This document shows, in pieces, positions 4,846 to 62,975 of a stretch of 64,000 bases of DNA; position 1 is the stretch's first letter; every line of letters starts with the position of its first letter. A program made the translations under genes and the position numbers. The stretch lies in assembly GCA_038330175.1 (NCBI GenBank), contig JBBQNS010000001.1, positions 15,552-79,551 of the forward strand, in the 5' to 3' direction. The stretch comes from Kiritimatiellia bacterium (GTDB lineage: Bacteria; Verrucomicrobiota; Kiritimatiellia; CAIKKV01; CAITUY01). The notes under the pieces were generated by a model. The model was not told the DNA's origin and ran no database searches. It worked only from the letters and a program-made list of their open reading frames with translations.

Positions 4846-5339
4846 ATGTGCAGTTATGGGCTCAAGGGCGCACCGACGGGGAAACGCCCTTGTAAAGAGA
4901 CGCTGAATCATGCCGCGTTGATCAGCCGCGTGAGCGGTCTGGATGTCTATGAACACACACCAGAGGCCTTTCGCCGGGCCTATGCGGCGCTGGGCATTGA
5001 CATCATCAACCGCGTTCCGCTGGACAATGCGACGAAGTGGGTGGGCCACGAGCCGCGCCGCTAGAAGTCGTCGAGGAGCAGTTCGGCCAGACCGGGCACG
5101 TCTTCATCGGTGGTGCGGAAACCGGCCTGTTGACCCGGGGAACGCCAGAACAGGTTCGTAAAATGGTTCAACGGCTGGCACAGTGTACCCGCTACCCTGG
5201 CTTTGTCATCTGCTCGCCGGGGGGGCTGCACGATAATATCCCTATGGAAAATCTCGAGGCCTATTTCGATGCCCGAGTGACACTCGGCGTCACTCCGGAA
5301 AACTGGCGAACGGCGATGAAGTCGGATTTGGCCGAGTGA
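4846..5339 (+). pseudogene. Remnant of a uroporphyrinogen-decarboxylase (URO-D/MtaA-like) family gene. Only the C-terminal ~100 aa are intact in frame, and the upstream part is out of frame.
   Basis: The 5037–5339 product (GTPEQVRKMVQRLAQ...GGLHDNIPMENLEAYFDA) aligns with the C-terminus of the intact URO-D-family gene at 63097–63963. The region is only ~500 bp, versus ~1 kb for a full gene. Confidence 0.5.
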
Positions 5340-5418
5340 GCGAAAGCACGCTAAGGTTACACAGCGGCGCAAATTTCGAGGCGATTTGAATTTGCTGAAA
5401 CTTGATACAGGAGCGAAT

Positions 5419-6765
5419 ATGAAAAATAAATGTGATGTGTGTGTAGTGGGTGGTGGAAGCGGGGGATTTGGCGCAGCGTTGGCGGCTGCACGGCGCGGGC
5501 TGCGCGTGCTGTTGGTCGAGAAGGGCTCCATGCTAGGCGGAACCAGCACGCTGGGCGGAGTGAATACCTGGGAGCCCGGTGTCAGTAGTTCAGGCTTTCC
5601 CCTGGAGTTATATGAGCGCCTGCGTCGACAGCAGAACGCCATTGGCGTAAGCCGCACCATCCAAAATTGGCAGCCCGACAAACCGTGGGGCTGGTCGCGT
5701 GTTGATGCGTTAGCCGACTATCAGAGTTCAGAGAGGCGGGCGGGAACGCCGAGTGATCAATGGGCGCGGATCACTTTTGAGCCGGAGGCGATGGCGGCGG
5801 AAATGCTTGCCATGCTGCAGGAAACTGGGAACGTGGACGTACGGCTGAATACCCGGTTTGTCAGAGCGGAATGTCAGGGTGATCAAGTGAAGCGGCTATG
5901 GTTGTCCGATTCCTCAGGTGAATTTGAGATTGAACCTAGCTATGTCGTGGATAGCACGGCGGAACTGCTTGTGGCCTCCGCCGTGGGATGCCGGACAAGC
6001 ATAGGAACGGAGCCGAAGTCAATGTATGGCGAGGACTGTGCACCCATAGAGCCGTTGACGCAGATCAATGGGGTCACGCTATGTTTCCGCGTCACTCCGA
6101 GTGATGTTCCAAACGTTCAGCCGTTACCGCCCGAGCTGTCGGGCGGCACCTTTACGCCGCCAGTGAGTATCACGGAGTATCCCTGCGGGGACTTGAATAT
6201 GAATTCGCTGCCGACCCTAGATGGCTGGGAGTATCGGCAGCTGGGCGAAGTCGAAGGGCGGCGGATTTGTGAACAGCGGATCGCGTTATTATGGCATTGG
6301 TTACAGGCGGATAAGGGGTTCGACCGGTATCGCCTGGTCCGGCTATTCCCGATGGTTGGGGTGCGAGAAGGTGCTCGGTTGGTGGGGCGCCATGTGTTAA
6401 CCGAGCTGGAGGTGCGGGCAGGGTGTTCAGGACAACAGAACCGAGATCGATGGATCGCTTTGGCAGATCATGCGTTGGATGTCCATGGGCATGGCCACAT
6501 GTGTCGGGAGTTAAGCCAGCCCTATGGGGTCCCTTATGAGTGTTTATTGCCGCAGGAATTCGAGAACCTGATTGTTGCCTGTCGCGGAGCGTCCTTCTCG
6601 CACATTGCGGCTTCGTCCTGCCGGCTATCGCGCACGATGATGGCACTAGGTCATGCCACAGGATTGGCCGTTGCTGAGGCCGTAAAAAAGCGCACCGGGT
6701 TGTCCTCAATTGAGGTTGGACGTATCCAGCCGGAGTTGAACGTCCTGTGTGACGCTGCTGTTTAG
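5419..6765 (+). CDS. FAD-dependent oxidoreductase (FAD_oxidored/PF12831-like)
   Basis: Dinucleotide-binding motif CDVCVVGGGSGGFGAALAAARRG. An AGGAG RBS lies 6 nt upstream of the ATG at 5419. The ORF-track start at 5386 is probably an N-terminal over-extension. Confidence 0.8.
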   Translation: MKNKCDVCVVGGGSGGFGAALAAARRGLRVLLVEKGSMLGGTSTLGGVNTWEPGVSSSGFPLELYERLRRQQNAIGVSRTIQNWQPDKPWGWSRVDALADYQSSERRAGTPSDQWARITFEPEAMAAEMLAMLQETGNVDVRLNTRFVRAECQGDQVKRLWLSDSSGEFEIEPSYVVDSTAELLVASAVGCRTSIGTEPKSMYGEDCAPIEPLTQINGVTLCFRVTPSDVPNVQPLPPELSGGTFTPPVSITEYPCGDLNMNSLPTLDGWEYRQLGEVEGRRICEQRIALLWHWLQADKGFDRYRLVRLFPMVGVREGARLVGRHVLTELEVRAGCSGQQNRDRWIALADHALDVHGHGHMCRELSQPYGVPYECLLPQEFENLIVACRGASFSHIAASSCRLSRTMMALGHATGLAVAEAVKKRTGLSSIEVGRIQPELNVLCDAAV

Positions 6766-6781
6766 AGGCCACATTTTGTCG

Positions 6782-7060
6782 CTAGGCAAGCGGCAAGGGC
6801 GCCGCTTCTACGGTGGTGCCGTATGTCTGAAACAGAGCCAAGGCTTGGCTCACGTCCAGGCGGTCGGCCGCATCAGCGAAGGGATTTCTCAGGTAGGGCG
6901 AGGTGTCCCTACCGAGCCGGAGCAAGTTGTGGCCATGAAATGCGCCAAAATAGTCAAAGTCTTTTGCGGCGCTTCAGATGGATTGCCCTTTACACCACGG
7001 CTCATCGGGACGATTCGCCCTACCGAATCCTTTTCGAATGGGGGCGTAGATAAGAGCGAT
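6782..7060 (-). pseudogene. Decayed 3' fragment of an AbiEii/AbiGii-family nucleotidyltransferase toxin gene
   Basis: Minus-strand translation gives ...LRNPFADAADRLDVSQALAL..., homologous to the C-terminus (LRRQLADAVDRLDVRQAIADV...QALALW) of the intact AbiEii at 20343–21212. There is ~85 % nucleotide identity over the segment cagagccaaggcttg...cacgtccaggcggtcg[g/a]ccgcatcagcga. An in-frame stop lies upstream. Confidence 0.5.
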
Positions 7061-7099
7061 TAGGTGGCTGTCACCGCTGGGGACAGTGGCCACTACAAG

Positions 7100-7131
7100 C
7101 ATGATCAAGCTGTGTTTTAAAGCTTGATCAT
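7100..7131. repeat. AT-rich inverted repeat CATGATCAAGCT-N9-AGCTTGATCAT
   Basis: Perfect 11–12-bp inverted repeat. A related copy (CATGATCAA-N16-TTGATCATG) is at 16942–16975. Both lie in AT-rich non-coding DNA next to AbiE-type loci. Confidence 0.45.
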
Positions 7132-7245
7132 ACAATAAAATACCGACCGCGCATTGTCAGCACATTTCTTTTCTTACAGACCTCAGAGGTATGAGCCCGC
7201 CATTAGCGCAACATGGTTATGTAGCTGACTCAACCACCCGCTACG

Positions 7246-7452
7246 CTAGCAGCCTGTCGGGCTTCGCGCCTGTGGAGGGGCTACCGGCGGAGACCGCCGG
7301 CTCCAGAATATAATTTGCGTCAGCAAACAAGCGTCACGTGCTGCCCATTGCTGAATTCACCGAGGATAGCCCGTTCTTTTAATCTTTGGAGCCGGCGGTC
7401 ACCGCCGGTGGTGGCGGTTGAGTCCGAAGGCTGTGCAAGTCCGACAGGCTGC
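7246..7452. repeat. Complete ~205-bp MITE/REP-like element with ~60-bp imperfect terminal inverted repeats built around the core CTACCGGCGGAGACCGCCGGCTCC / GGAGCCGGCGGT(C/A)(T/C)CGCCGGT(A/G)G
   Basis: Left arm 7249–7306 and right arm 7387–7452 are reverse complements at both termini (GCAGCCTGTCGG...) and in the core. Related copies are at 56–125, 49831–50015 and 62976–63069. Confidence 0.7.
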
Positions 7453-7700
7453 CAGGCGTAGGGCGAACAGTTTGACCCTGTTTTTTTAAGCTCACGGAAC
7501 TGTACAGCGCGGGGCGTTTCGTCTATTTTTCAAGCATGTACATGAAGAACGAAGTGCGCAACCCAGTCTATATCAAGCTGGTAATAGCGATCGCCTTTAT
7601 CCAGCTACTCGCACTGGAGGCCATTTTACCTCCGGCCTTCGGACAAGAGCCTTCCGCCATTCTCGCCACTGTTAACACGCAAACGTAAAATACAGCTAAG

Positions 7701-9512
7701 TTGATAGAGAGCGCAGTCGGACGGGGCGGGAAAGCCTTACAGAACCTTTCATCCGGTGGCCTCTCCACATCATCGAAAGCGGAAGTGAACTCACGTATAC
7801 TTTTACTTGAGCAGGTGGTGGCGCAGGATCCTGGTTCCATGGAAGCTCACTACTGGCTGGGTTATTGCCTCTCCCTTCTGATCTTTGGCGAGGATGATAC
7901 CGTAAAGCGACTTAAGCGCGATGAGCGGCAAACCCGGGAATACGAGGCGGTTCTTGCAGGAACGGCGCCTGGAGACGCCCTGCGCGAGAAAGCCTTTTCC
8001 GAATACATGCAAGGCACCTGTGATCTACAGAATGTGGTTGCGGCACGCGCCACGAGCAACTACATGACGGCTCAAGAAATAGCCGAGTGGCAACCGAAGG
8101 CGCTTGCCGCCTGGCAACGTATGCGGGACTTCGTTGAGCGATATTTGACAGAGCCTCCGAAAAAGAAACGGGGCGATTATTTCCACCTCTTGCCGGCCTA
8201 CCGTTTGCGCCTGGCCAGCACGAACGATGCACAACCCTTAATCGATTGGTTCCTGCTGCTGGATACGGTTTACGGCTCCAATCATGCGGCTTATGACACG
8301 CGCTGCCCCTTCCTGTGCCTCGCCCAGGAGTTACTGTGGGCGAACCGGCCACAGCAGGCGCTGGCATTCTACCTGCGTGGAATGGAGGCGCATGGTCATG
8401 TTGCCACAACCCCGTGCCTCAACGGGAAAACGGCTTGGGGCCTTGAGTTGGAAATCCGCAAGGCACTCGGGGAGGGAGATTCAGATCAAGTGAAGCTGAT
8501 CGAGAAAACACTACAGGCGGAGGAGGCAGAACGTTGGTCATGTCAACCGTTACGGGAAGCCTTCTCCAAGTGGCCCGGCGCTGAGCCGCCCGTGGCCGAA
8601 GCTCCCGAGGGTCTCGTAGCAACCGTCGCCCGGTTCCCATTCGATGGTTCGGTTTTGGCCGCATCGACAGGCCGTTCCGACAGCTACTTCTTCATCGGCG
8701 CGGAAGGACTATCCGGTGGAAGTGGCAACGGTCAGCGCCGTGACCGCTACCGTGTTCATAAGCTCATTCGCAAGTCGCCGGGCTCGGGCATTACCGTGGA
8801 AATACCGCTCGAACGAAATGGAGAAACCGCTCGCGTCACCGTAATACTATCGGTCGGGGATACGGTGTGGTTCGGAACACATCAGGGTCTGGCAAGATAC
8901 GACGCTCGACGCCAAGACTCGCGCTGGCTGGAAAAAGCCGACGGAGTCCCCCTCTGCTCCATCCTGTCGGGCTGTTATGCAAACGGGAAACTGTGGTTCG
9001 GCGGCGACAATGGTGGCAATGCGTCGGTGATCTTTAGCCTGGACCCAGGTGAAGGCCGGGTTCGCACCTATGGTCTCGACATCGGACCGGCTTACGGCCC
9101 CCCATTGGGAATCGCCGTCCGGAAAGATATTGCCTTCGTCATAACACGCCCATGCGTCCATCAAATCGACCTCCGCTCTGGCCGGAGCACAGCGCTTGAA
9201 ATCCTTTCTCCGGCCGGCAAGTTGGCCGTCAATAAAAACGACATACGGCGTACCGGATATCAGCCGACAACCGTTCCTGTCTTCTGCCGGGGACAATGGT
9301 GGGTGGGGACGACAGGAGGATTGGCCTTACTCGAACAAGGGGATCCACCCGCCTTCCGCGTACTGTTTTCCACGGGGCACAATGAGTATCCGAGTGAATA
9401 TGAGGTCTTGGCGCGGCATTGCAAGGCGCGAGCCCTTCCGGGGCGGCGGCTTTGTTCCGAGCCGAGGGCGCGCTCTATCGGGGTCTCTACCACACCGGGG
9501 AAAACGCGCTGA
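7701..9512 (+). CDS. Large hypothetical protein. Its C-terminal part resembles two-component-regulator-propeller (Reg_prop/Y_Y_Y-like) repeats.
   Basis: A 603-aa ORF. Contains repeats such as VWFGTHQGLARYD and KLWFGGDNGG. The ORF continues in other frames downstream (see the 9419–10487 feature). Confidence 0.5.
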   Translation: MIESAVGRGGKALQNLSSGGLSTSSKAEVNSRILLLEQVVAQDPGSMEAHYWLGYCLSLLIFGEDDTVKRLKRDERQTREYEAVLAGTAPGDALREKAFSEYMQGTCDLQNVVAARATSNYMTAQEIAEWQPKALAAWQRMRDFVERYLTEPPKKKRGDYFHLLPAYRLRLASTNDAQPLIDWFLLLDTVYGSNHAAYDTRCPFLCLAQELLWANRPQQALAFYLRGMEAHGHVATTPCLNGKTAWGLELEIRKALGEGDSDQVKLIEKTLQAEEAERWSCQPLREAFSKWPGAEPPVAEAPEGLVATVARFPFDGSVLAASTGRSDSYFFIGAEGLSGGSGNGQRRDRYRVHKLIRKSPGSGITVEIPLERNGETARVTVILSVGDTVWFGTHQGLARYDARRQDSRWLEKADGVPLCSILSGCYANGKLWFGGDNGGNASVIFSLDPGEGRVRTYGLDIGPAYGPPLGIAVRKDIAFVITRPCVHQIDLRSGRSTALEILSPAGKLAVNKNDIRRTGYQPTTVPVFCRGQWWVGTTGGLALLEQGDPPAFRVLFSTGHNEYPSEYEVLARHCKARALPGRRLCSEPRARSIGVSTTPGKTR

Positions 9513-10487
9513 TTGAAATGGTACAGCACAATGATGATCACCACCCGCTGTTACAGGCAGAGGCAGCACGGCTACTGTGGGAAAGTCGGGCTTTCGCCCA
9601 CGGCGTCACCGATACCGCCCTGCTTCAATCGGCCCGCACACATTACCAAGTGGTGGCAAAAGGTCGGGGATCGGAGGCGATGTGGGCATGTTATGGTCTC
9701 ATGCGTCTTGCTGCTGCCTGCGCTGAGGACATCCCTTCACCGGCGCTGGAAGCAGCGCGGCGTTTCCCTCGCAGCGTGATCGCCGAGGAAGCCTGCAGGT
9801 TCTTGAATTCCTCGAATACCAGCACCCCTCCCGTGCTTTGCAGAACTATGGCCAGCCCACAGAAGGTCATAGCCGTTCGCCTCTTTCCCCGACGTGGCTT
9901 TGTCGCGGGGCAGCCGCTATGGGGAATACGGAGGCCTGGGCGGAAACAACGAGATCCAGAACTTGCTCGCAGAACTCCAGATATTGGAGTCATGGCAGAG
10001 CGCCGTGGCAATGGGGCAATACAATCAGCTTTTGGCCAACACCTCAGTGATGGCTACCTATTCTCATCGTTGGAAGCCCGTAACCGCACGCTTCTTACAT
10101 CAGCTTCGCGGAAGCGCTCTGGCCGAGTTAACGGGTTTGAAGGATTTAAAGGTAGCTGAAGGCCAGACGGAAGAACAAGCCGTACTTCTACTGGCACGCG
10201 TGGCAAAGGCTGCAAAAGACTGGAGCGCACTTGTCACCTGTCTCGACGCTTACCGATTAGCCGCCTTCGGAGTCCAACCCGTCCCGATTTGGCTCAATGA
10301 CGGTATTCAGGCCGGGCGGCAAATGGTGGCCGCCCGTCGGTTTGAGCAGGCGGGAGACGTGGCGCGTGCCGCATCGGCGTATGTCACCGTTCTCACGGCG
10401 GTATCGGATTTTGCCCCCGTGGAAGATGCGCTGCTGGATATCGGTCGGCTTCAAAAAATCAGGCCTGATGTCCTTGACTCATTATGA
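9419..10487 (+). pseudogene. Probable continuation of the 7701 gene in two further reading frames (9419–10159, then 9894–10487). This means either a frameshifted pseudogene or indel errors.
   Basis: Both overlapping ORFs read like real protein (helical/TPR-like LLQAEAARLLWESRAF..., then ...LLARVAKAAKDWSALVTCLDAYRLAAFG...). They abut the 603-aa ORF without intergenic space. Confidence 0.35.
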
Positions 10488-10497
10488 ATATGGGGGT

Positions 10498-11028
10498 TTA
10501 TAGAGACCCAGCCTTTGCAATAGTTACCTCGACAGTTGGTCTGTCCGTGAATTTCTCGAAACGCTTGTGTGCCAACACCTGGGCCAGACGCAACCGGTTG
10601 TAACGCTGGGCCAGAATGCACGGCAGATTAGCCACCACGCCATAGGCCACCATGACCAGCCCCACGCGCCAGCTGTTCCATAGAAAGAACAGCAACGCAG
10701 ACCCGCACACAACCCAGTGCACGATCTCGCCACGGCAGGTCTCTGTCAGGAAGCGGGCAAAATAATCTCGTCCGCCGCCTGCAAGTGACTTCTTCCGGAA
10801 TCCCTGTGTGAACAAGGCACCGCCATCTGGCAGAAGATCCTTCCAAGCCTTAATCGCGAAAAAACGTTCATAGACCCGTCCCCCCCGCTCCCACTTGCGC
10901 TCCCGAAAAAGCCAGCCTGCCGGGTTGAACCGCTCCGACGAAATCCGCATCCCCAGATAGGCCACGCCTAGATGGATCGTCAGCCACGCCAGGACATTGA
11001 CGACAACGATCCATAACGGCGAAATCAT
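10498..11028 (-). CDS. Glycosyl-4,4'-diaponeurosporenoate acyltransferase-like (CrtO-like) membrane protein
   Basis: A 176-aa hydrophobic protein with the WLFRERKWERGGRVYERF...KAWKDLLPD pattern typical of the staphyloxanthin CrtO family. Its ATGA overlap with the upstream GT2 gene suggests an operon. Confidence 0.55.
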   Translation of the reverse strand: MISPLWIVVVNVLAWLTIHLGVAYLGMRISSERFNPAGWLFRERKWERGGRVYERFFAIKAWKDLLPDGGALFTQGFRKKSLAGGGRDYFARFLTETCRGEIVHWVVCGSALLFFLWNSWRVGLVMVAYGVVANLPCILAQRYNRLRLAQVLAHKRFEKFTDRPTVEVTIAKAGSL

Positions 11029-12137
11029 ACCGCCCCCTTATCCGTCAGATCAATGCTTCGCCCCTTCCAGGACACATTCTTGCGCAACCCGGTCCTAACC
11101 AGCGAACGCATGAAAACCATGAGATAGAACAGCAGCGCTACGGGGTAACAGAGTGCCGTGATCCAGCGGAAGGATCCGATCCGAATCAGCATCATATAGA
11201 TCTGAACGGCATACAGCACATAAAGTATCAACCACACACCAAGGAGTTCACCCTTTACTGCGGCGATGGCGAGCAAAATGCCTGTGACCAGGCTCCCTGA
11301 TAACCACGCAATAATCGCCAAAAGCAACGTCAGAGGTGTCTGAGCCGCTCCTGTTGCAAATGCCTTAGCCCATCCCGCCTGCAACTCATGCACACCGTGA
11401 GGATACATTCGCATGGTCACAGTTCCCCTTCCCCCGCAGCAACGCATCGGTATGCCAGCCCGGCCAAAAAGCGGCGCCATGAAGAAGTTTTCAAGAATCT
11501 GGCCCCGCACCGCCGCATGCCCGCCAACCAACTCATAGGCCCGGCGGTCCACCATCAGAAAAGGCCCAAAAAGCCCTCCCGGGTTCAGTCTGCGGCCCGC
11601 TATCGTAAAGGCCCCCGTGCCTGCCGTCATGATAAGATTGAAGAAGGCTGACAACTCCTCATAATAACAGCGCACTTTATGATACGGCCCAATGGAAAGA
11701 ACGCCAGGACGGCGCGCATACGTATCCCGGATCGCGCGCAGGGCATGAGGTTCAAGGCGCGTATCGGCATCCATGAAGATCAGTACCGACCCGGAGGCCT
11801 CGTTGGCTCCTTGTTGGCAGGCCCACGTCTTGCCCCGCCACCCTGCGGGCAAAGGATGCGACGGCATCATACGCGCACCACCCGCAACCGCCACGGCGGC
11901 CGTCTGATCGCTCGACGAATCGTCAACCACAATGATCTCGTCTGGTGGCGGATCCTGTGAGGTCAGTGACTGGAGTAACCCCGGCAGATTTTCCTCTTCG
12001 TTCCGGGCGGGCACGATGACTGAAAGCGTGAAACCGGGTTCTGGCGCGGAACTGGGGCGGCATAAGGTAATGCGGCCTAGAAACACAAATCCCAGCGCCC
12101 ACAGCACGGTCACTGTCACCAGCAGCAAAACCGTCAT
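11025..12137 (-). CDS. Family-2 glycosyltransferase (CrtQ-like, 4,4'-diaponeurosporenoate glycosyltransferase-type)
   Basis: GT2 signature SVIVPARNEEENLPGLL...IIVVDDSSSD. The start at 12137 forms an ATGA overlap with the stop of the upstream desaturase gene. Confidence 0.7.
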   Translation of the reverse strand: MTVLLLVTVTVLWALGFVFLGRITLCRPSSAPEPGFTLSVIVPARNEEENLPGLLQSLTSQDPPPDEIIVVDDSSSDQTAAVAVAGGARMMPSHPLPAGWRGKTWACQQGANEASGSVLIFMDADTRLEPHALRAIRDTYARRPGVLSIGPYHKVRCYYEELSAFFNLIMTAGTGAFTIAGRRLNPGGLFGPFLMVDRRAYELVGGHAAVRGQILENFFMAPLFGRAGIPMRCCGGRGTVTMRMYPHGVHELQAGWAKAFATGAAQTPLTLLLAIIAWLSGSLVTGILLAIAAVKGELLGVWLILYVLYAVQIYMMLIRIGSFRWITALCYPVALLFYLMVFMRSLVRTGLRKNVSWKGRSIDLTDKGAV

Positions 12138-13618
12138 GGCCGATCCCATTCGATAATCTTGCGGCACACGTTCTGACCGCACAAAACGACCATGGGCATT
12201 CCGCCACCGGGGTTGACGGAACCTCCGACAAAGAAAAGGTTCGGGTAACGCGCATCTTGCTTAGGCGCCTTGAATCCAAAGTTTTTCCATTTGTCCGCCA
12301 CCACACCATAGATGGAGCCACAGTTCGAGTAGTACTGCTGCTGGATATCGCGGGGCGTCCAGACATGTTCAAACACGATGTGCTTGCGTAAGTCCGTAAG
12401 GCCCATGCGCTCGAGTTTGTCGATGACCCGCTCCTTGAAGGCCATGTAATCCGCATCCGTGAGCGGATGCGTCTCGTCCAGGCAGGGAATGTGGGGCAGG
12501 ATTTTCAGGCAATCACACCCGGGCGGCGCGACGGAGGGGTCTGTCTTCGACGCGGCCACCAGATAGATAGTGGGGTCGGCGGACAGCTCGCCCTTGTGGA
12601 ATACGGCATCGAAATGCTTCCGCGCATTAGCCGAATAGAAGAAGTTGTGGTGTGCCAGCTGCGGGTAGCTGATGTCCAGCCCCAGATCGAGAATCAGCCC
12701 GGAGCACGCCGGCTTGAAGCGCCGTAGTCGCCGCAGTGCGGCTTTATCCGGAGGAAGCAGTTGGCGGTGCGCCGGGATGAGCTCCATGTTCGAGACGACG
12801 ATATCCGCATCGGCCTGCCCACCATCGACCAGGGTGATCCCTGTGACGCGCTCACCCTGTGTTCGAATCCGGGCCACTTCGCGGTTCAGATGCACGACAA
12901 TTCCAAGTTCGTCCATCAACTTTTTTAATCCGTGGGCAATGTTGTATAGCCCGCCGTCCACGTACCAAAGATCATGACGAAACTGAATGGTCGGAAGGCA
13001 GTTCATGAACGCGGGCGCATCGTAAGCGGATGAGCCCACATACTTGATGAAGTAATCGAGCACATCGCGGACATGCGGCTCATCTATGAACCGAGCCACG
13101 CCCCCATGCATCGTGCGAAATAAATCAAACTTCAAAAAATCCATCAGGCCGTAATGGTGCTGAAAATCCTTAAGTGTGTCCAAACCGCGTTCAAAGTAGC
13201 CGGCGTTGACGGTATCGTAAAGTTTGCCTGCGTAATTCAGAAAAGCCTGGAACCGTTCAGGGTCCTGCCCGACCTTGCGCAATTCCGCCACCATCTGGTC
13301 CGTCTCCGGAACGAGGTCGAGCACCGTGCCGTCCTCAAAGAAATTTCGCCAATGCGGCCGCAGGGGCCGGATCGGGATGTAATCGGCCATGCGCTTTCCT
13401 GAGCGCTGAAAGAGCCGCTCGAAGAGATGGGGAAGCGTGAGGATCGAAGGGCCGAGATCAAACGAGTAACCTTGAGCCGTGAGGACATTCAGTTTCCCTC
13501 CGATCTGGGCGTTCTTTTCAAACACTTCGACCTGGTATCCCTCCTGCGCCAGCGAGATCGCCGCAGATAAGCCACCCAGCCCTGACCCGATCACAATCAC
13601 TTTTTTTGTTTCGCTCAT
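12134..13618 (-). CDS. Phytoene-desaturase-family enzyme (CrtN/CrtP/CrtI-like carotenoid desaturase or oxygenase)
   Basis: N-terminal FAD fold KKVIVIGSGLGGLSAAISLAQEGYQVEVFEKNAQIGGK. About 500 aa with a C-terminal NPGGGMP motif. The start at 13618 is MSETKK. Confidence 0.8.
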   Translation of the reverse strand: MSETKKVIVIGSGLGGLSAAISLAQEGYQVEVFEKNAQIGGKLNVLTAQGYSFDLGPSILTLPHLFERLFQRSGKRMADYIPIRPLRPHWRNFFEDGTVLDLVPETDQMVAELRKVGQDPERFQAFLNYAGKLYDTVNAGYFERGLDTLKDFQHHYGLMDFLKFDLFRTMHGGVARFIDEPHVRDVLDYFIKYVGSSAYDAPAFMNCLPTIQFRHDLWYVDGGLYNIAHGLKKLMDELGIVVHLNREVARIRTQGERVTGITLVDGGQADADIVVSNMELIPAHRQLLPPDKAALRRLRRFKPACSGLILDLGLDISYPQLAHHNFFYSANARKHFDAVFHKGELSADPTIYLVAASKTDPSVAPPGCDCLKILPHIPCLDETHPLTDADYMAFKERVIDKLERMGLTDLRKHIVFEHVWTPRDIQQQYYSNCGSIYGVVADKWKNFGFKAPKQDARYPNLFFVGGSVNPGGGMPMVVLCGQNVCRKIIEWDRP

Positions 13619-13890
13619 AGGCCTTCCTTTCTTTCCACGCCTCTTGTAAAACGCTACGGACGACACGGAGGTCGTCCCTCCATCTTGCAAGCCAGGCCGT
13701 TTCCATCATCTTCTGGAGGGTCGTGCTCCGTCACGACCGTCTTCTCTGGAGGTTTTGCAAGAGCCTCCCCCGTATCGTCCGCGTTACCTGTGAAACACAG
13801 TAACCGAGACATGGTCAGACATAGACGCTATTTCATGATCCCTTATACATTAACCTTGACTAGAAACCATGTTTTTTTTCTACTTACGGC

Positions 13891-15273
13891 ATGGGAGTAA
13901 ATTACAGCTTGGAAAACGTGCGTAGTTTATGGGAGACAGGCATAACCTTGCCCCTCTCTTTCCGGCGTGAACAGCTCCTGACGCTGCAACATGCCATCGA
14001 AGTTAACGAAGGCGTCATCCTCGATGCCTTGCGGGCCGATCTTGGTAAGCCGCCTTGCGAAGCCTATGCCTCGGAACTGGGCTTTGTGCTGGCCGATATC
14101 CAGTACGCGTTGAAACATCTTGCCGCCTGGGCGCGCCCCCAACGACACCATACACCGCTCGGGTTGCAGCCCGCGCGAAGCTCGGTACATCCCCAACCCT
14201 ACGGTATCGTTTTGATTATCGGACCTTGGAACTACCCCTTTGCCCTGACCCTCTCCCCGCTGGTATCCGCCCTGGCGGCCGGAAATGGTGTCTGCATGAA
14301 ACCCTCCGAGTTCGCCCCGCAGGTGTCGGCGGTGCTGGCACGTCTTGCCCGTGAGTATTTCCGACCAGACATCCTGACCGTCATCGAAGGCGATGCCACG
14401 GTTGCCGGAACCCTTGCCCGCCTGCCATTTGACAAGATATTCTTCACCGGCAGTACGGCGGTGGGCCGCCGCGTGCTGGAGGCGGCAGCAGCGAATCTCA
14501 TACCCGTTACCCTTGAACTGGGCGGCAAATCACCTTGTATCGTTTGTGACGATGCCGACCTGCGGGTCGCCGCACGCCGCATTGCCTGGGGCAAGTTTCT
14601 CAACGCGGGGCAAACCTGTGTCGCGCCCGATCATGTGTGGGTCCAAGCCTCCTGCCTGCGCCCGCTGGTGGAGCACCTTACGGCTACGATCCAGACATTC
14701 TATGGCCCCAACCCGCAACAGAGCCCCGACTACAGTCGCATTATCAACCTCCATCACCTGCAGCGGCTGACCGCCTATCTCGGGCAAGGACACCTCGAGT
14801 GCGGAGGGCAGCATGATCTGAATGATCGATACCTCGCTCCAACCATTATGACTGGTGTTCCGCTTGCGGCCTCCATCATGCAGGAGGAAATTTTTGGTCC
14901 CATCCTGCCGGTTCTGCCGTTCAACACGCTGGATGAGGTCATCAAGCAGGTCCGGACGCAGCCGCGGCCGCTGGCCCTTTACGCATTCACCGAAAACCGC
15001 GCAACACAAACGCGCCTTCTGGCGGAGACCTCTTCCGGTGGCGTCTGTTTCAACGACACCGTGAGCCACATTCTGGCACGCGATCTCCCGTTTGGTGGTA
15101 TCGGCGCCAGCGGCATGGGCGCCTATCACGGAAAGGCGGGATTCGATGCGTTCACACATTACCGAAGCGTCATGACGCGCTCCTTGCATTGGGATCCAGG
15201 ATTCAAGTATCCTCCGGTTACAACTTCGCTTGTCGCCATGAAACGTATCTATCGATTCCTATTAGGGAGTTAA
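13891..15273 (+). CDS. Aldehyde dehydrogenase family protein (candidate diapolycopene-dialdehyde / carotenoid aldehyde dehydrogenase)
   Basis: ALDH motifs ELGGKSP and FTGSTAVGRRV, plus the catalytic-Cys region GQTCVAPD. A 460-aa ORF. Confidence 0.85.
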   Translation: MGVNYSLENVRSLWETGITLPLSFRREQLLTLQHAIEVNEGVILDALRADLGKPPCEAYASELGFVLADIQYALKHLAAWARPQRHHTPLGLQPARSSVHPQPYGIVLIIGPWNYPFALTLSPLVSALAAGNGVCMKPSEFAPQVSAVLARLAREYFRPDILTVIEGDATVAGTLARLPFDKIFFTGSTAVGRRVLEAAAANLIPVTLELGGKSPCIVCDDADLRVAARRIAWGKFLNAGQTCVAPDHVWVQASCLRPLVEHLTATIQTFYGPNPQQSPDYSRIINLHHLQRLTAYLGQGHLECGGQHDLNDRYLAPTIMTGVPLAASIMQEEIFGPILPVLPFNTLDEVIKQVRTQPRPLALYAFTENRATQTRLLAETSSGGVCFNDTVSHILARDLPFGGIGASGMGAYHGKAGFDAFTHYRSVMTRSLHWDPGFKYPPVTTSLVAMKRIYRFLLGS

Positions 15274-15282
15274 GGAGCCACT

Positions 15283-16794
15283 ATGCCCAAAACAAAACAT
15301 ATCGTCATTGTTGGTGCCGGTCCGGGCGGTTTGACTTCCGCCATGATCCTGGCCCACCGCGGATTCAAGGTCACGCTTTTTGAAAAGCAACCCCAGGTCG
15401 GTGGTCGGAATGCAGCCCTGCGAGCGGGTCCCTTTGTGTTTGACGTTGGTCCGACTTTCCTGATGTTGAAAAGTGTGCTGGACGAGGTTTTCCACGAGGC
15501 TGGCGCAACCACCGATGCTTTGATGGATATGCGCCGGATCGAACCCATGTACCGGCTACAGTTCGCTGACAAATGGATCGAGCCCTCCACCGACCGGGCG
15601 CGCATGAAAGCCGAAATTGCGCGCGTGTTCCCCGGTCGCGAGGATTCTTATGACGCATTCATGGCGAGAGAGCAAGCGCGGTTCCGCCACCTCTTCCCGT
15701 GCCTGCAGAAATCCTATCACCGGTTTTCCTCCCTGTTCTCACCCGACCTGCTCAAAGCCCTGCCCCATATGGCCCTGGGCCGTACTCTTTTCTCGGAGGT
15801 CTTTCGTATCTTCAAACAAGAAGACCTGGCGCTATCCTTCACCTTCCAATCCAAGTACCTCGGCATGTCACCATGGGAATGCCCGGGACTGTTCTCGATG
15901 ATCCCCTACATCGAGCACGCCTACGGCATCTATCATCCCATCGGCGGCTTGAGCCGTATTTCCGAATGTATGGCGGAGGTCGCGCAGCGCAATGGCGCCA
16001 CGATTCGTCTCGGCACACCTGTTGAACAAATCATTGTGCGCAACGGCGTGGCGACAGGAGTGCGCCTGACGGGCGGCGAGGTTGTGGACGCCGACGAAGT
16101 GGTGATCAATGCCGACTTTGGACATGCCGCCACGGAGCTTTTCGCCCCGGGCGCACTTAAAAAGTACACTCCTAAAAAATTAGCAGGAATGAAGCTTTCC
16201 TGTTCTACCTTTATGATGTACCTGGGGCTCGATACGATTCTTGACCTGCCGCACCACTCGATCATTTTTGCGCGCGACTATCGGACCAACATCGAGCGCA
16301 TTTTCAAAGGGCAGGAACTGTCCGGCGATCTCTCGTTCTATATACGCAATGCCAGTATCACGGATCCGACGCTTGCGCCGGCAGGCCAGTCGGCACTTTA
16401 TATCCTCGTTCCCGTCCCGAATCTTCGAAGCGGACTGGACTGGGAGCAGCGTCGCGCGGCCTACCGGGAAATGACTCTGGACGCCGTGACGGCGCGCACG
16501 GGAGTGAATCTGCGCAACCACATCATATCAGAAAATATCGTCACGCCGGCCGACTGGAAAGAAACCTATCAGGTGTATGAAGGCGCCACCTTCAACCTGG
16601 CGCATAACATGGCCCAGATGGTTTACCTGCGGCCACGCAACAAATTTGAGGACGTCGACAACTGCTATCTGGTCGGCGGCGGCACTCACCCCGGCAGTGG
16701 GTTGCCCACAATCTACGAATCAGGGCGGATCTCCGCTAACCTCATCTGCCGCCGCCATAATATTCCGTTTGTTTCAGGTAACCTTGAGGTTTGA
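15283..16794 (+). CDS. Phytoene-desaturase-family enzyme (CrtI/CrtN-like carotenoid desaturase)
   Basis: KHIVIVGAGPGGLTSAMILAHRGFKVTLFEKQPQVGGR FAD-binding N-terminus. A 503-aa ORF with a C-terminal GGGTHPGSG motif. Confidence 0.85.
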   Translation: MPKTKHIVIVGAGPGGLTSAMILAHRGFKVTLFEKQPQVGGRNAALRAGPFVFDVGPTFLMLKSVLDEVFHEAGATTDALMDMRRIEPMYRLQFADKWIEPSTDRARMKAEIARVFPGREDSYDAFMAREQARFRHLFPCLQKSYHRFSSLFSPDLLKALPHMALGRTLFSEVFRIFKQEDLALSFTFQSKYLGMSPWECPGLFSMIPYIEHAYGIYHPIGGLSRISECMAEVAQRNGATIRLGTPVEQIIVRNGVATGVRLTGGEVVDADEVVINADFGHAATELFAPGALKKYTPKKLAGMKLSCSTFMMYLGLDTILDLPHHSIIFARDYRTNIERIFKGQELSGDLSFYIRNASITDPTLAPAGQSALYILVPVPNLRSGLDWEQRRAAYREMTLDAVTARTGVNLRNHIISENIVTPADWKETYQVYEGATFNLAHNMAQMVYLRPRNKFEDVDNCYLVGGGTHPGSGLPTIYESGRISANLICRRHNIPFVSGNLEV

Positions 16795-16941
16795 GGTAAA
16801 TCCTTGATTTTAGGGAGGCTCTCGCCAATCTCAAAATTGCAGGAGGTATATTGCTTCTATCCACATTCTTCAGCGGCGCGATATCGCTGACGCCGAGACG
16901 TCAATCACCTTCGCGACGTCTATAGGCGTGACAGATTAAGA

Positions 16942-16975
16942 CATGATCAAACTTTATAACAAGGCTTGATCATGT
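16942..16975. repeat. AT-rich inverted repeat CATGATCAA-N16-TTGATCATG, related to the one at 7100
   Basis: Lies in the ~370-bp AT-rich spacer that precedes the low-GC island starting at 17172. Confidence 0.4.
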
Positions 16976-17171
16976 TTTCGATATTTTGAATTTCCACTAA
17001 ATTTTATTGCCCCTGATCGACTCTCAACGTGATTAATCGTCGGTTTAAAAATAAAACAGTGCCGGATTTATCTCCTTGATACTATCGGTGCGCAATGATA
17101 TATAAATGCTCATAAATATATTATATCAGTGAACACTAATTATTCGGTTCGAAGTAAAAAGACGCGTTAAA

Positions 17172-18344
17172 ATGAATAGGCAACAATACTTATTTCAGAA
17201 AATGAACCTATGGTTGGAGGCTAAGGGTTACAAACCCGTCTTCTCGCTTTCCAACAAGGATGCTGAACTTGATAGAGATTCTATCTTCAGGAAAGAGGGT
17301 GCGGCTCCTCTTGCTGTCGAGATGCGGGTGCTGAATGCCTACAGGTCTCAGGAATTCAGAGCGTTGATCGGTGATGCGATACTGCGCAACCGATATGGCG
17401 AATCGGAACGGCAAGTTGAAAAGGAATTCTTCCTTGCCATCATGCTTAAACGCATAAGCCCGATGATCGTGAAGGATCTTCAGGATTATGCTCAAAGGTA
17501 TCTGCCATCTTTGAACTGGCTGGCAGTGGATGAAGTGGGCCAAGGACAGGCCTGGTTCAGTGGTGTACAGGAATCGATCTCATTGTCGGATGCCTTCCGA
17601 CAAGAGGTTGATGGAAAGGTTCAGAGCTCACCGGGAAATATCTTTTCCCAAAAGAACCAGTGGTTGTTCAAAATCCTTCTGTTGGCGGGCATTGATAAAC
17701 AGTACTGGGGAGGGCCCTCACGTGTTCCAGGCAGCATCAGCGAACTGGCTCAAATATCGGGCGTTCCCCAGCCCTCAGTCTCATCTTTTGTAATGAAAGC
17801 CGAAAGCGCGGGATTCCTGAAACGATCCCGAGGTGGATTTCACATCATTCGATATCATGAATTGCTGGATGAATGGTTCTACTCCGTCAAACAACGGCGG
17901 CGCTATGAAGTCGGAGCACGCTTTCTCTATGGTGAGGAACCCGATGAACGTTTTGTCGACAAGATGAGGGAGTACTGCCACAAGGCAAAGTCAGGAGTGG
18001 ATGGTCCGGTACTCATTGCCGGTCATCACCTTGCCTGCCATCTTCTGAAACTGGGCCGTTCCAATGTTCAGTTTGCCAAGATTTATGCAAATCGTCCGGT
18101 AGAGGAAATGATGTCGGAACTCGACCTGGCACGAGATGAATCCTCCGATCCTCAACTGGTCCTGGCGGTTCCGCCAATCGCGCAACCGGTCTTTGCGGGC
18201 CACGTTGTTTGCGATGGAATTCCCGTAAGCGATGTACTTCAATGCTATTTAGACGTGAGATCGTCGCTTGCGCGCGGCAATGAGCAGGCAGAATTCATTC
18301 TGGAAAAAATACTCATGCCCCATTTCGAAAGGAAGCCTCTATAA
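17172..18344 (+). CDS. Hypothetical 390-aa protein with a central winged-helix-like segment. Candidate AbiEi-like antitoxin/regulator partner of the downstream nucleotidyltransferase.
   Basis: Markedly AT-rich codon usage compared with its surroundings. A putative wHTH (ISELAQISGVPQPSVSSFVMKAESAGFLKRSRGG) is present. The stop overlaps the next start (TAATG). Confidence 0.4.
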   Translation: MNRQQYLFQKMNLWLEAKGYKPVFSLSNKDAELDRDSIFRKEGAAPLAVEMRVLNAYRSQEFRALIGDAILRNRYGESERQVEKEFFLAIMLKRISPMIVKDLQDYAQRYLPSLNWLAVDEVGQGQAWFSGVQESISLSDAFRQEVDGKVQSSPGNIFSQKNQWLFKILLLAGIDKQYWGGPSRVPGSISELAQISGVPQPSVSSFVMKAESAGFLKRSRGGFHIIRYHELLDEWFYSVKQRRRYEVGARFLYGEEPDERFVDKMREYCHKAKSGVDGPVLIAGHHLACHLLKLGRSNVQFAKIYANRPVEEMMSELDLARDESSDPQLVLAVPPIAQPVFAGHVVCDGIPVSDVLQCYLDVRSSLARGNEQAEFILEKILMPHFERKPL

Positions 18345-19213
18345 TGATAGGAAAAAGATTTGATCCTTTCTTTGCTCAGATTGTACAGACTCTGGGGCCC
18401 TATTTGGATGATGTTTTGTGTATCGGCGGGTGCGCCAACGCTCTTTACCGGTTCCACGATCTCGCGAGTCCTATGCCCTGGGGGTACCTTGGGACCAAGG
18501 ACGTGGATCTCGCCACACCTCAGCACCTGTTCGTGAAGGACGGAAAGTCACTGGCTGTTCTCATGGCGGAAGCCGGGCTTGAGGAGGAACAGAAGGGACA
18601 CGGCCACCAAGCTGTGATTAAATATAAGGCAAAGGATGGCGATCTGGCTGCGGAACTGGAGTTTCTGTGCCCATTGTCAGGAGCCAAGGGCCAACGAGAA
18701 GGATCAGAGTCACCCACTGTCTGTGTGGTTCAGGAAGGGTTGCATGCCCAGCCACTGCGTTACCTTGAAATTCTCTTCAGTCATCCCTGGTCGGTGAGTA
18801 TCGGGAAGATTCCTGAATTCAGGGAACTCGGCGGGTTGCAAGTTCATGTGCCGAATCCGGCGGCCTATGTTGTGCAGAAAATCCTGATTCGTGATCAAAG
18901 GCGGTCTGATCTATCGAAGGCGAAAGACTGTTACTACATCTATGAGATTTCGGTTATCTTCAGGGACGCCTTGGATCAGATCTCATCTGAGTTTGAAGGG
19001 CTGTTCCCATGTCTTCCCGCGTGGAAAAAACGGTTTCAGAAAGAGGCGAGCCACCTGTTTGAATCACAAAATTCAGAAGGGCCCGCTTTGGCTGTACGCA
19101 CATATCATGATGCAGGACGTCCAAGAACGGGAACTAAGATGCCTCCGACACCCGAGATGGTCTATCGCTCGGTCAAAAAACTACTTACGGCAATGAATAC
19201 CAGCCTTCTGTGA
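18344..19213 (+). CDS. Divergent AbiEii/DUF1814-like nucleotidyltransferase (candidate toxin or effector)
   Basis: NTase-fold motif hGG...Y...(D/E)hD (LCIGGCANALYRF...GTKDVDLATP). C-terminal KILIRDQRRSDLSKAKDCYYIY parallels the K..R..K.RDWYDL of the canonical AbiEii at 20343. Translationally coupled to the upstream gene. Confidence 0.5.
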   Translation: MIGKRFDPFFAQIVQTLGPYLDDVLCIGGCANALYRFHDLASPMPWGYLGTKDVDLATPQHLFVKDGKSLAVLMAEAGLEEEQKGHGHQAVIKYKAKDGDLAAELEFLCPLSGAKGQREGSESPTVCVVQEGLHAQPLRYLEILFSHPWSVSIGKIPEFRELGGLQVHVPNPAAYVVQKILIRDQRRSDLSKAKDCYYIYEISVIFRDALDQISSEFEGLFPCLPAWKKRFQKEASHLFESQNSEGPALAVRTYHDAGRPRTGTKMPPTPEMVYRSVKKLLTAMNTSLL

Positions 19214-19287
19214 TCATGACCTTAACGTTTAACGTTTCGTCACCTGATCCTTATATAAATCTGCTATTAACTTGTCCCTGATGAGCC

Positions 19288-20112
19288 TTAGCCTTCTAAT
19301 AGTTGTGTAAGCGCTTGGGGTGCAAGTTGTCGGCCATATTCCGACAGTTCGAACGATTCCACGTAATGGAATGAGTCGGCCTCGACGCCATACTGGGCGT
19401 GAAGTTGGGTCCGGTATAAATCGGCCTGAAGACGGTTGGAGGCTAACCATCGTTTTTCCAAAAAAGCCAATCGTTCAATCCGGGTCATGCGGCTCAGGTT
19501 AAAATCTTTGTTCCCGTCAAGCCAGGGTAGCCATTCGTAAAATTGCGACACGTGGCAGTCGAGCATCGCCAGTTTGGAGCTGACGGCATTGTCAATGGCG
19601 ATGCAGGCATCCGGACGGAACGGGGTGGGCTGTTGAAATCCATCCCAGCTCACGCAAAACACCGGCCACTCCAGGGGAATCGGAATTTCAGGGCAATACA
19701 GCGGCACCCGGATCAAAAAAGAGGCATCCTGTACCAGTTGGGCCGTTGCCCGATGATCAGCGTGGTAATCACATTGGCGATGTGAGATGACGATGTCCGG
19801 GGCGAATTCACGGATGATTTTTACGATTTGTGCCCGGTTCCCCAGTGACGGCACCAGTTGACCGTCGTGGTGATCCAATACTTGGTATTCTGCCAATCCC
19901 GCGATATGGGCGGAGGCCTGGGCTTCTGCATAACGCCGTTTGATCAGTTCAGTGGGGGACATGGCGTAATGTCCGGCATCTCCGTTGGTGGTAGACACGA
20001 ATTTCACTTTGTGGCCCAGTTTGGACAACTTGATGGCACATCCGCCGAACATCCCGTCCGGGTCATCGGGATGGGCTCCGATAATAAGAAATTTTTTGCA
20101 GGTCAACTTCAT
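19288..20112 (-). CDS. PIG-L/LmbE-family N-acetylglucosaminyl deacetylase
   Basis: LIIGAHPDDPD ... HADHRAT zinc-binding motifs. The ATG at 20112 is preferred over the TTG-extended ORF start. Confidence 0.8.
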   Translation of the reverse strand: MKLTCKKFLIIGAHPDDPDGMFGGCAIKLSKLGHKVKFVSTTNGDAGHYAMSPTELIKRRYAEAQASAHIAGLAEYQVLDHHDGQLVPSLGNRAQIVKIIREFAPDIVISHRQCDYHADHRATAQLVQDASFLIRVPLYCPEIPIPLEWPVFCVSWDGFQQPTPFRPDACIAIDNAVSSKLAMLDCHVSQFYEWLPWLDGNKDFNLSRMTRIERLAFLEKRWLASNRLQADLYRTQLHAQYGVEADSFHYVESFELSEYGRQLAPQALTQLLEG

Positions 20113-20342
20113 GGTTTTGTTAAAGAATATTGAATCCCTAGGGTTTTGCAACGTTTGATCAATCAGCCTAATTCATCCTGCCTACCTTCCGCCCCGGTTC
20201 CACTAGCGGCAGCCCCGTATTCGCTCGAGGCATAGAGTCACGAGTGAGTGAGTAGAGAGATCGAAAGATTTTCACGGCGCGATACGATGCGACCCTTCGC
20301 GGTTACGTAAGGGCCAGATGCAAGCCTTATTGCCGCAGACCG

Positions 20343-21212
20343 TCAAACCAACACGATTCGGCGCATGACTTCCGTGAAAAAGTCCTTTGACCACAGAGCC
20401 AAGGCTTGCCGATCCCGCACGAAAGGCTCGACGTCAGCAATGGCCTGCCTCACGTCCAGGCGGTCGACCGCATCAGCGAGTTGGCGCCGTAATTCGTCCG
20501 GCGCCAGTGCATGGGCTGCAGTGTAGTCTCCAGATTGGCGCATGCGAAATTCCAGATGCCGGACGTGCAGCTCCGGGTGTCGCCCCGCATACCAAACCAG
20601 ATCGTACCAGTCCCTTCCCTTTACCCGGTTCTTCCATTTCCGACACAGCACGGCATGGATTTTGCCAGCAAAGAGGTCGGGCAAAGAATAGGTGCGTACG
20701 GCAAAGGGGACAGGCTGGAGAACATACTTCGTTTCAGTGGTAAATCCGGGCGGGGGCTTTGTATCCACTTCCAGTTTGATCGTGAGTTGACGTCCTAAGG
20801 GAAGCGTTGCAACCATTTCAGGAGCCGCCTCCAGCACAATCATTTGTTGCACGGTGTCCGTCTTGAGAAATGCCGACTCAATCGCCGAGGCCTTCCGCAC
20901 GTTCGGTTTCTGATCAAACCGCACTGAAAACCCGAAACTACGGAGTTCATTCTGCAGCGCATCTCCGTAGCGGGCCAGTGTGAAATGGGCATCCGGCTTG
21001 AGGAGCGAGAAGTCCAGATCCTCCGAATAGCGGTCAAGCCCGTGAAGGATCCTCAGAGCGGTTCCTCCATAGAAAGCGGCATGCTCAAAAAACTTGCTTC
21101 GCCACAACCCCAGCAGCGCCAGTTCCTGAAGAATCTCGCGAAGGGCATTCAAGTAATCGTCACGGGTCTTGCAGTCGTACCGAGCCAACATCTGCCTAAC
21201 AGCCTCATTCAT
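20343..21212 (-). CDS. abiEii: AbiEii/AbiGii-family nucleotidyltransferase toxin (type IV TA / abortive-infection)
   Basis: Canonical FYGGTALRILHGLDRYSEDLDFSL motif. A 289-aa ORF. Overlaps the upstream abiEi stop by 4 nt. Confidence 0.85.
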   Translation of the reverse strand: MNEAVRQMLARYDCKTRDDYLNALREILQELALLGLWRSKFFEHAAFYGGTALRILHGLDRYSEDLDFSLLKPDAHFTLARYGDALQNELRSFGFSVRFDQKPNVRKASAIESAFLKTDTVQQMIVLEAAPEMVATLPLGRQLTIKLEVDTKPPPGFTTETKYVLQPVPFAVRTYSLPDLFAGKIHAVLCRKWKNRVKGRDWYDLVWYAGRHPELHVRHLEFRMRQSGDYTAAHALAPDELRRQLADAVDRLDVRQAIADVEPFVRDRQALALWSKDFFTEVMRRIVLV

Positions 21213-21859
21213 CGGTGTTTCCTCCGTGTGCGTTGGACGGCTTCAACCAATCCCGCGATCCGGGAGTCGTTATACCCTCCGGCAATTTCCTGCACCGCCT
21301 TCAGATCCAGTTGGGCAAGTCGTTCCCGGTCAATACGCAAATCGTCAAACAAGTAGACGGCATAATCGATGGACGCCGAGGGTTTAAACCGTCGATCCAA
21401 CCAAACGATATCAGCCAATGCCTTTTCAGGTGATGCGATTAGAAAATAATCAGCGCCGCTCTTCGCCTGCGTTAGTCCCATGGCGTAAGGCATCATGGGA
21501 ATCCGGCGATAAGTGAACAAACCGAACGGCGTCTGAAACCGGCGAGTCTTGCCACTGGTGACGCTCGTGACTACGTTTACCCGCTCGGGAATCATCCCAT
21601 GATGACTGAGGGCATACTGTAAACTGATATAGGAAGGCCCGCAAATGAGGTTAGCAAGAAGTTCCCTGCAAACCGGTTGCCGCCGCCACGCCTCTCCGAA
21701 AACATACAACCCCTTCTTGACACGCACAACGGCCCCTGTGGCCATCAAAGAACTGATCTTGTCACGTGGCTTGGAGTACTCCCGCAGAACATCCATCAGC
21801 TGCTGGTAGTCGATGACTTCCCAGTCAATGCTTCGTCTTAGTTCTTCCATTACATTCAC
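21209..21859 (-). CDS. abiEi: AbiEi-family antitoxin / transcriptional regulator
   Basis: 216 aa. Typical AbiEi N-terminal wHTH plus C-terminal domain (GLYVFG...ALSHHGMIPE). Immediately upstream of abiEii with a 4-nt overlap. Confidence 0.8.
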   Translation of the reverse strand: MNVMEELRRSIDWEVIDYQQLMDVLREYSKPRDKISSLMATGAVVRVKKGLYVFGEAWRRQPVCRELLANLICGPSYISLQYALSHHGMIPERVNVVTSVTSGKTRRFQTPFGLFTYRRIPMMPYAMGLTQAKSGADYFLIASPEKALADIVWLDRRFKPSASIDYAVYLFDDLRIDRERLAQLDLKAVQEIAGGYNDSRIAGLVEAVQRTRRKHR

Positions 21860-21884
21860 AGTTCAGAGTAAACCATATTTAATT

Positions 21885-21915
21885 CCAGTATGTCCAGTAT
21901 TATTGGACATACTGG
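21885..21915. promoter_or_regulatory. Perfect 12-bp inverted repeat CCAGTATGTCCA-N7-TGGACATACTGG, about 25–55 bp upstream of the abiEi start. Candidate AbiEi autoregulatory operator.
   Basis: The exact palindrome is seen in the sequence. AbiEi antitoxins are known to autorepress through inverted repeats in their own promoter. Confidence 0.5.
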
Positions 21916-21991
21916 ATTTCAAAGACGTCGCTGCCGCTTTGAAAAAACACGATACCCCACCCTGATGCGCATACGCGGGCGGGGTTCCTGC

Positions 21992-62951: not shown

Positions 62952-62975
62952 GGCGGTTTTGCAAAGCCTTCGGCC

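Follow-up and report, generated by a model that had tools for sequence, protein, structure and literature searches.

AbiE is a bicistronic, autoregulated toxin–antitoxin system of type IV (PMC3985639, PMC7319586), and its control has been traced to the action of the antitoxin protein together with autorepression (PMC3985639, PMC7319586). REP doublets, or REPINs, have the anatomy defined by Bertels & Rainey (PMC3116915, PMC3337134). The stretch of DNA analysed here, 64,000 nt from a poorly sampled Kiritimatiellia MAG and hereafter called the window, holds an AbiE module, an orphan scrap of abiEii DNA some distance away from it, and, beside the scrap, an inverted doublet of REP type.

The pair of genes at 20343–21859 is, judged by its sequence, a genuine AbiE module; the identification of an intact abiEi/abiEii pair made in a first-pass annotation was confirmed by PF08843 and PADLOC. 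The two genes overlap by 4 nt. The closest AbiEii, at 84% amino acid identity, comes from a Kiritimatiellia MAG (locus L003) in which the cassette stands among unrelated genes, and DNA homology to this relative (73%) is limited to window 21918–20352, starting with the operator and ending just short of the stop codon. Because the relative's homology is confined to these 1.57 kb and lies in a different genomic context, the abiE cassette behaves as a movable unit that is gained and lost as a module. The operator repeat is kept between cassettes of 73% DNA identity and marks the left edge of the mobile 1.57-kb unit.

A second, divergent AbiE pair had been proposed at 17172–19213, and this assignment did not hold. 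The gene at 18344–19213 matches PF12281 (NTP_transf_8, 1.1e-13), not PF08843; its partner is a 390-aa protein with weak HTH matches only. Searches of the pair gave no PADLOC AbiE match and no NCBIfam match, and hhalign against an AbiEii profile returned a probability of 0.05%. The pair would thus seem AbiE-like in architecture at most, and by these searches it falls outside AbiE. It has a 1-nt start/stop overlap, a toxin–antitoxin-like arrangement, and a position in the lowest-GC kilobase of the window (0.46). Further along, an ORF with REase-ARP / PD-(D/E)XK nuclease domains (38217–39215) adjoins a 723-aa ORF without a Pfam match (36019–38190), and the two may form another defence-type locus. 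Between the scrap and the intact abiE genes lies a carotenoid-type cluster (11025–16794) with a family-2 glycosyltransferase, two amine-oxidase/CrtN-like desaturases and an aldehyde dehydrogenase.

A patch of abiEii DNA in an intergenic mosaic

The scrap, which we call the patch, lies in a 935-nt intergenic region between a gene for an FAD-dependent oxidoreductase and a gene for a TPR protein (from about 7701). This region is a mosaic of two small hairpins, the abiEii patch, a REP doublet, a 33-bp palindrome and a MITE-like element (Table 1). From the stop codon of the FAD gene to the patch there are 67 nt, in which no intrinsic terminator is predicted. Neither Rfam families nor tRNAs were found in the region.

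Table 1. Features of the intergenic region and of the AbiE module, in window coordinates
Feature	Position	Strand	Remarks
FAD-dependent oxidoreductase gene	5419..6765	+	PF12831, 1.7e-71
47-codon ORF, TTG start, patch in frame	6782..6925	-	no homologues
Orphan abiEii-derived patch	6832..6879	-	lacks 39 internal nt; substitutions at 6848 and 6867
Perfect 17-nt palindrome GAGCCAAG-G-CTTGGCTC across the deletion junction	6835..6851		
REP-like hairpin unit GGTAGGGCGAGGTGTCCCTACCGAGCCG, 28 nt	6892..6919	+	same 28 nt, without mismatch, dispersed in other PVC-group MAGs
Degenerate inverted partner of the REP unit, GGTAGGGCGAATCGTCCCGATGAGCCG	6997..7024	-	with extended arms, forms the doublet 6877-7042
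33-bp palindrome CATGATCAAGCT-N9-AGCTTGATCATA ("AT-rich palindrome")	7100..7132		
MITE-like inverted-repeat element	7246..7455		copies or half-copies at 56-125, 49828-49991 and 62959-63070
Source segment in intact abiEii, encoding LADAVDRLDVRQAIADVEPFVRDRQALALW	20393..20479	-	
Intact abiEii toxin gene	20343..21212	-	PF08843, 1.5e-35; PADLOC AbiEii, 8.1e-108
Intact abiEi antitoxin gene	21209..21859	-	PADLOC AbiEi, 9.5e-63; NCBIfam TAA_AbiEi, 1.5e-12, below cutoff
Operator-like inverted repeat CCAGTATGTCCA-N7-TGGACATACTGG upstream of abiEi	21885..21915		conserved in the L003 cassette (146-184)

The patch corresponds to 87 nt of the C-terminal coding part of abiEii (20393–20479) less 39 nt, on the same, minus strand, and 46/48 of its nucleotides are identical; the nucleotide stretch that the first-pass annotation had seen to be shared with the intact gene is therefore real. 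Short-word blastn of 6500–7600 against the window recovers it as two blocks, both collinear with abiEii and on the same strand: 6832–6847 matches 20393–20408 at 16/16, and 6849–6879 matches 20449–20479 at 30/31 (E = 3.8e-9). In abiEii the 39 nt absent from the patch are flanked by TGCC direct repeats (20407–20410 and 20446–20449), and the 48-mer expected from their removal agrees with 6832–6879 at the 46 positions counted above. Read in the abiEii frame the patch gives (F)ADAADRLDVS-QALALF. The two differences, G6848 and G6867, amount to a point divergence of about 4% and are both non-synonymous in that frame (R to S, V to A). Homologues of abiEii in other taxa carry the same residues over the source stretch and encode them with different nucleotides, which identifies the stretch as native to abiEii. 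The 48 nt at 6832–6879 descend from abiEii DNA.

Chance similarity is ruled out, both by the E-value of the longer block and by the value for the whole 48-mer (~1e-20; the analytic probability of a 48-mer with at most two mismatches anywhere in the window is ~1.7e-20). So is a chimera or artefact of MAG assembly, since an independent Logan contig (L002, run SRR19962012) is 100% identical to window 5192–6914, patch included. That contig stops at 6914, exactly on the 3' side of the REP hairpin (6892–6913); coverage may fall or the assembly graph may break at the repeat, or the population may be heterogeneous to the right of it.

Homology to abiEii ends abruptly at both edges of the patch. Its 30-nt flanks agree with those of the source at 10/30 and 8/30 positions, a random level, and exact-word matching of 6300–7700 against 19900–22100 on both strands found no non-random match besides the patch itself. 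The last 50 nt of the abiEii gene are missing from the locus. The derived part of 6782–7060 is accordingly 48 nt, or 16 codons, compared with the 279 nt and ~60 aa claimed before. Metagenome scans (with the deletion junction and a 31-mer) and a viral scan turned up no further copies of the patch.

Protein-level tests and the repeats around the patch

In the first-pass annotation, 6782–7060 encoded ~60 aa homologous to the C-terminus of AbiEii. A tblastn search with the intact AbiEii product, the check proposed there, matched 19 aa in the region (68% identity, E=0.025) and no longer span. The 118-residue minus-strand translation, with its stop masked, matched no Pfam family at E<=10 and none of the 40-odd PADLOC AbiEii models at E<=1; the intact abiEii matches 26 PADLOC AbiEii models. 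Against a custom AbiEii profile of 120 homologues (63–100% identity to the intact gene), run in --max mode with all filters off, 20 aa aligned at 0.3 bits; filling the deletion with 13 X residues brought the score to 1.9 bits, and each flank taken by itself, upstream or downstream, scored negatively and at wrong profile positions. By hhalign, 27 columns of the AbiEii profile aligned, with a probability of 15%. Among 5.8 billion proteins a word-indexed search gave no match, and a phmmer search of the 63-codon open stretch against 1.84 billion representative proteins gave no AbiEii protein. Across all tests, AbiEii support ends at about 20–27 residues. The first-pass annotation had itself named beforehand what would tell against it, a similarity limited to 40–50 nt with no longer support at the protein level, and that is in full what is seen.

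The few phmmer matches have other causes. The sole meaningful one (P0242) is a 168-residue ENA metagenome ORF made of tandem LGRDTSPYLRGNWK units; this peptide is the minus-strand translation of the REP unit at 6892–6919, and the match, which runs through LGRDTSPYL, was rejected as a toxin homologue because it is a translated tandem REP. Two others (P0241 and P0243) are repetitive proteins that match through summed weak repeats.

The nucleotidyltransferase domain with its catalytic motifs is absent, as had been stated, and the sequence upstream of the patch shows no alignment to AbiEii at any position. An in-frame stop does exist on the minus strand (6974–6976), but it falls in the spacer of the REP doublet, which is non-homologous to abiEii, and so does not interrupt a toxin remnant as had been supposed. 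AbiEi gave no tblastn match near 6.7–7.7 kb, and no abiEi DNA, abiE operator or other copy of the operator-like inverted repeat was found near the patch. The segment 6782–7060 is a piece of the DNA of the AbiEii family (PF08843 / DUF1814) and not a member of it.

One could still read the whole of 6782–7060 as an old pseudogene of the abiEii C-terminus, some 90 codons long and broken by a single in-frame stop, in which a core of 48 nt either stayed similar or was made alike again when the intact copy converted it. A 63-codon open stretch contains the patch in frame and has a codon score within the range of genes, and a stop follows 15 codons after the patch, exactly as in abiEii. Yet the codon-usage score of the 47-/63-codon frame is equalled by 9–14% of spurious open frames in the window, and the tail leading to the stop is identical to that of abiEii, by manual alignment, at only 16/50 nt, the random level. 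The family residues W-S-x-x-F-F that follow QALAL (motif W-S-x-D-F-F) are invariant or nearly so among AbiEii homologues, and the patch frame has F-Q-T-Y-G-T in their place. Upstream the supposed pseudogene consists of the REP doublet, no test gives an AbiEii signal outside the 20–27 residues, and gene conversion needs pre-existing flanking homology, which is absent here. We therefore consider this reading highly improbable. The 47-codon ORF in Table 1 is probably not a gene, and the 47-/63-codon frame was rejected as coding, being indistinguishable from spurious open frames.

What occupies most of the former "remnant" is a REPIN-like inverted doublet of a REP hairpin at 6877–7042. Its unit, GGTAGGGCGAGGTGTCCCTACCGAGCCG, forms a hairpin with a 7-bp stem, starts with GTAG and is dispersed and palindromic, and two such units in inverted orientation form the larger hairpin. 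The arms 6892–6909 and 7007–7024 are 83% complementary and extend to about 6877–7042; the region folds with z-scores of -5.9 (plus-strand RNA), -4.9 (minus strand) and -3.6 (DNA) relative to shuffles. The window holds one intact REP copy and one or two degenerate ones. In a scan of one genome per species, the central 20-mer of the unit had ten exact sites at nine loci, in a Verrucomicrobiota MAG, six contigs of "Lentisphaerae bacterium RIFOXYC12_FULL_60_16", a "delta proteobacterium" MAG and one bin; 7/10 of these sites are in the one Lentisphaerae MAG. More degenerate copies were found as well. The full 28-mer is 100% identical in six loci with variable flanks. In many cases a slightly different, inverted partner accompanies it, with about 50 nt from one start to the other, and such inverted doublets are seen in loci L012, L013 and L015 (for example L012 1708–1776; L015 1774–1837 and 6573–6640). 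The spacer between the 28-nt units is ~77 nt in the window and about 25–30 nt in the other MAGs. No transposase-like Pfam domain was found in the scanned ORFs of the window, which were those of 180 aa or more apart from the last three. Identity of the unit at 100% among Verrucomicrobiota, Lentisphaerae and "delta proteobacterium" MAGs (L007–L015) is unusual for REP-type repeats.

The two other repeats of the region, a MITE-like element and an AT-rich palindrome noted as neighbours of the patch in the first-pass annotation, are both real. The palindrome has a twin at 16942–16974; the two share a 12-nt half-site (CATGATCAARCT) and a 9-nt spacer, and both have an operator-like look. The first comes directly after a -35/-10-like site on the minus strand (7160–7132); the HTH-like gene at 17172 follows the twin at a distance of about 200 nt. 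A link between the patch and the NTP_transf_8 pair through this shared palindrome was considered and rejected, as there is no protein or DNA similarity besides the palindrome. The MITE-like family has inverted ends of ~70 nt with the hairpin CCGGCGGAGACCGCCGG followed by CTCCAGAATATAAT, which resembles a -10 box, and variable central parts; one copy is a solo half. No member was found in the other loci compared.

Routes by which the patch may have arisen

We consider the patch a non-functional scrap derived from abiEii by some route, with a probability of roughly 0.8. Our preferred route, to which we give about even odds, is erosion, with the patch as the last vestige of a second abiE cassette removed by deletions. 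A nearly identical second cassette would once have stood between the FAD-oxidoreductase and TPR-protein genes, and larger deletions would have removed it down to the present 48-nt fragment, which would now be without function. The fragment itself shows the loss of 39 nt between the 4-nt TGCC direct repeats, a deletion of the slipped-strand type, and two point changes. Deletion is a common fate of a toxin gene that has lost its antitoxin. The collinear, near-identical blocks, the flanks without homology and the modularity of the cassette in a relative are in favour of erosion, and the non-synonymous character of both substitutions is consistent with the absence of selection on the peptide. Against it, the surroundings of the patch show no other piece of a cassette, be it abiEi, the operator or more of abiEii, so that erosion needs at least two flanking deletions besides the internal one, all at about 4% divergence; and the gene's last 50 nt, which a simple 5' truncation would have kept, are gone.

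Comparison with relatives has little reach at this site. One other assembly, from the same run, carries the window genes. The closest homologues of the FAD gene are at most 65% identical and occur in unrelated, glycan-utilisation contexts with no AbiE downstream; a scan of genome contigs with the FAD protein gave no match. None of the relatives compared has a full abiE cassette at the site of the patch, though FAD homologues at 65% identity or less are too distant to decide the matter. Of the repeated gain and loss of abiE modules suggested earlier, what stands is compatibility with one loss event; one intact cassette and one 48-nt scrap demonstrate none.

The main rival to erosion is a short ectopic copy, in which ~87 nt of abiEii (or already 48 nt) would have been inserted without a full cassette ever having been present, through template switching during replication, or as "filler" DNA during repair, in a hairpin-rich region, again with a non-functional product. 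The sharp edges of homology on both sides, with flanks at random identity, the density of hairpins and palindromes at the site and the lack of other cassette debris all fit such a copy. So does G6848, the one base at the junction without a source in abiEii, which completes the perfect 17-nt palindrome at 6835–6851. Palindrome completion of this sort is a signature of template switching at quasipalindromes; G6848 could be a trace of this process, and it hints at a template switch as opposed to plain decay. Two points weigh on the other side. There is no microhomology between the flanks of the abiEii segment and those of the insertion site at the outer junctions, and bacterial genomes more often lose duplicated or acquired cassettes through deletional decay than they gain short pieces of genes by templated insertion, which is rare. 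We hold the ectopic copy to be possible, and less likely than erosion, which we continue to prefer.

A functional reading starts from the strand of the patch. An RNA transcribed from the plus strand, either the 3'UTR of the FAD gene or a small RNA, would pair with the 3' coding region of abiEii mRNA through 47 complementary nt and would damp toxin expression in trans. The patch lies just past the FAD stop in the antisense orientation, with no predicted terminator between; the predicted duplex has -98.6 kcal/mol, compared with -47 for shuffles; and the region is highly structured. The complementarity, however, is what common descent would produce in any case, the fold predicted for the plus-strand RNA has the patch already engaged in base pairs, there is no Rfam match (a known RNA family at the locus was rejected on the same ground), and AbiE is controlled by protein-level antitoxin action and autorepression (PMC3985639, PMC7319586). 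We regard this antisense role as very doubtful, a shade more so than the 90-codon pseudogene. If true, it would represent an RNA-level safety catch, recruited from the toxin gene itself and laid over a type IV system.

Least probable of all, in our estimate, is a recombination scar, in which the two copies would be attL/attR-type repeats around a 13.5-kb element (6880–20392) integrated in the 3' end of abiEii. The patch and its source are direct repeats 13,561 nt apart, and they match the 3' end of a gene as in many integrative elements. Contrary to this, the interval contains ordinary genes (a TPR protein, a glycosyltransferase, two CrtN-like oxidases and an aldehyde dehydrogenase, along with the NTP_transf_8 pair and a PIG-L deacetylase), has no integrase among its ORFs of at least 180 aa and no tRNA, and has a GC profile without a clear island between the repeats; one "core" moreover carries a 39-nt deletion. 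Among all window ORFs of at least 180 aa, scanned except for the last three, beyond 59.8 kb, there was no integrase, transposase or reverse transcriptase. An integrative island, a DGR and a retro-element were rejected on these grounds, together with the lack of a tRNA.

Comparison with known systems

The locus is best called an ordinary genomic scar, as opposed to a toxin pseudogene of ~60 residues. An annotation as "AbiEii pseudogene, ~60 aa" would be wrong here; what is present is a 16-codon scrap and a REP-type doublet. As evidence that abiE cassettes turn over in a Kiritimatiellia genome the patch counts as one weak data point, and it is a neat example of a slippage deletion between 4-nt repeats.

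Like the AbiE system described by Dy et al. 2014 (PMC3985639), the module at 20343–21859 is bicistronic and has an upstream inverted-repeat operator. The patch, although taken from the C-terminal coding region of abiEii, has no nucleotidyltransferase domain, no match to the family HMM and no antitoxin. Type I and type III systems, with their antisense RNA antitoxins, resemble it only in the speculative reading, as a separately encoded RNA complementary to the toxin mRNA; AbiE, in contrast, is a type IV system with a protein antitoxin.

The patch shares more with vestiges of toxin–antitoxin and defence cassettes. Like them it is an intergenic piece of a toxin gene without antitoxin, promoter/operator or catalytic domain, and like them it lies near an intact paralogous cassette and bears a slippage deletion between short direct repeats. 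It differs in being unusually small (48 nt) and fresh (46/48) with both edges sharp and, compared with a simple truncation, in lacking the natural 3' end of the gene.

The doublet at 6877–7042 shares with the RAYT-mobilised REPs and REPINs its two inverted, GTAG-initiated palindromic units and their spacer, and as there, the 28-nt unit is dispersed in the intergenic DNA of other genomes, often as inverted doublets. Compared with the doublets of the other MAGs, that of the window has a longer spacer and a degenerate partner. Exact identity of the 28-mer across MAG taxa is atypical of lineage-specific REPs. This 28-mer, common to several PVC-group MAGs, is a more reusable by-product of the analysis than the patch itself: REPINs have been described in Proteobacteria, the present unit comes from PVC-group MAGs, and together with the two other repeat families of the same intergenic region it could define REPIN-type elements outside Proteobacteria.
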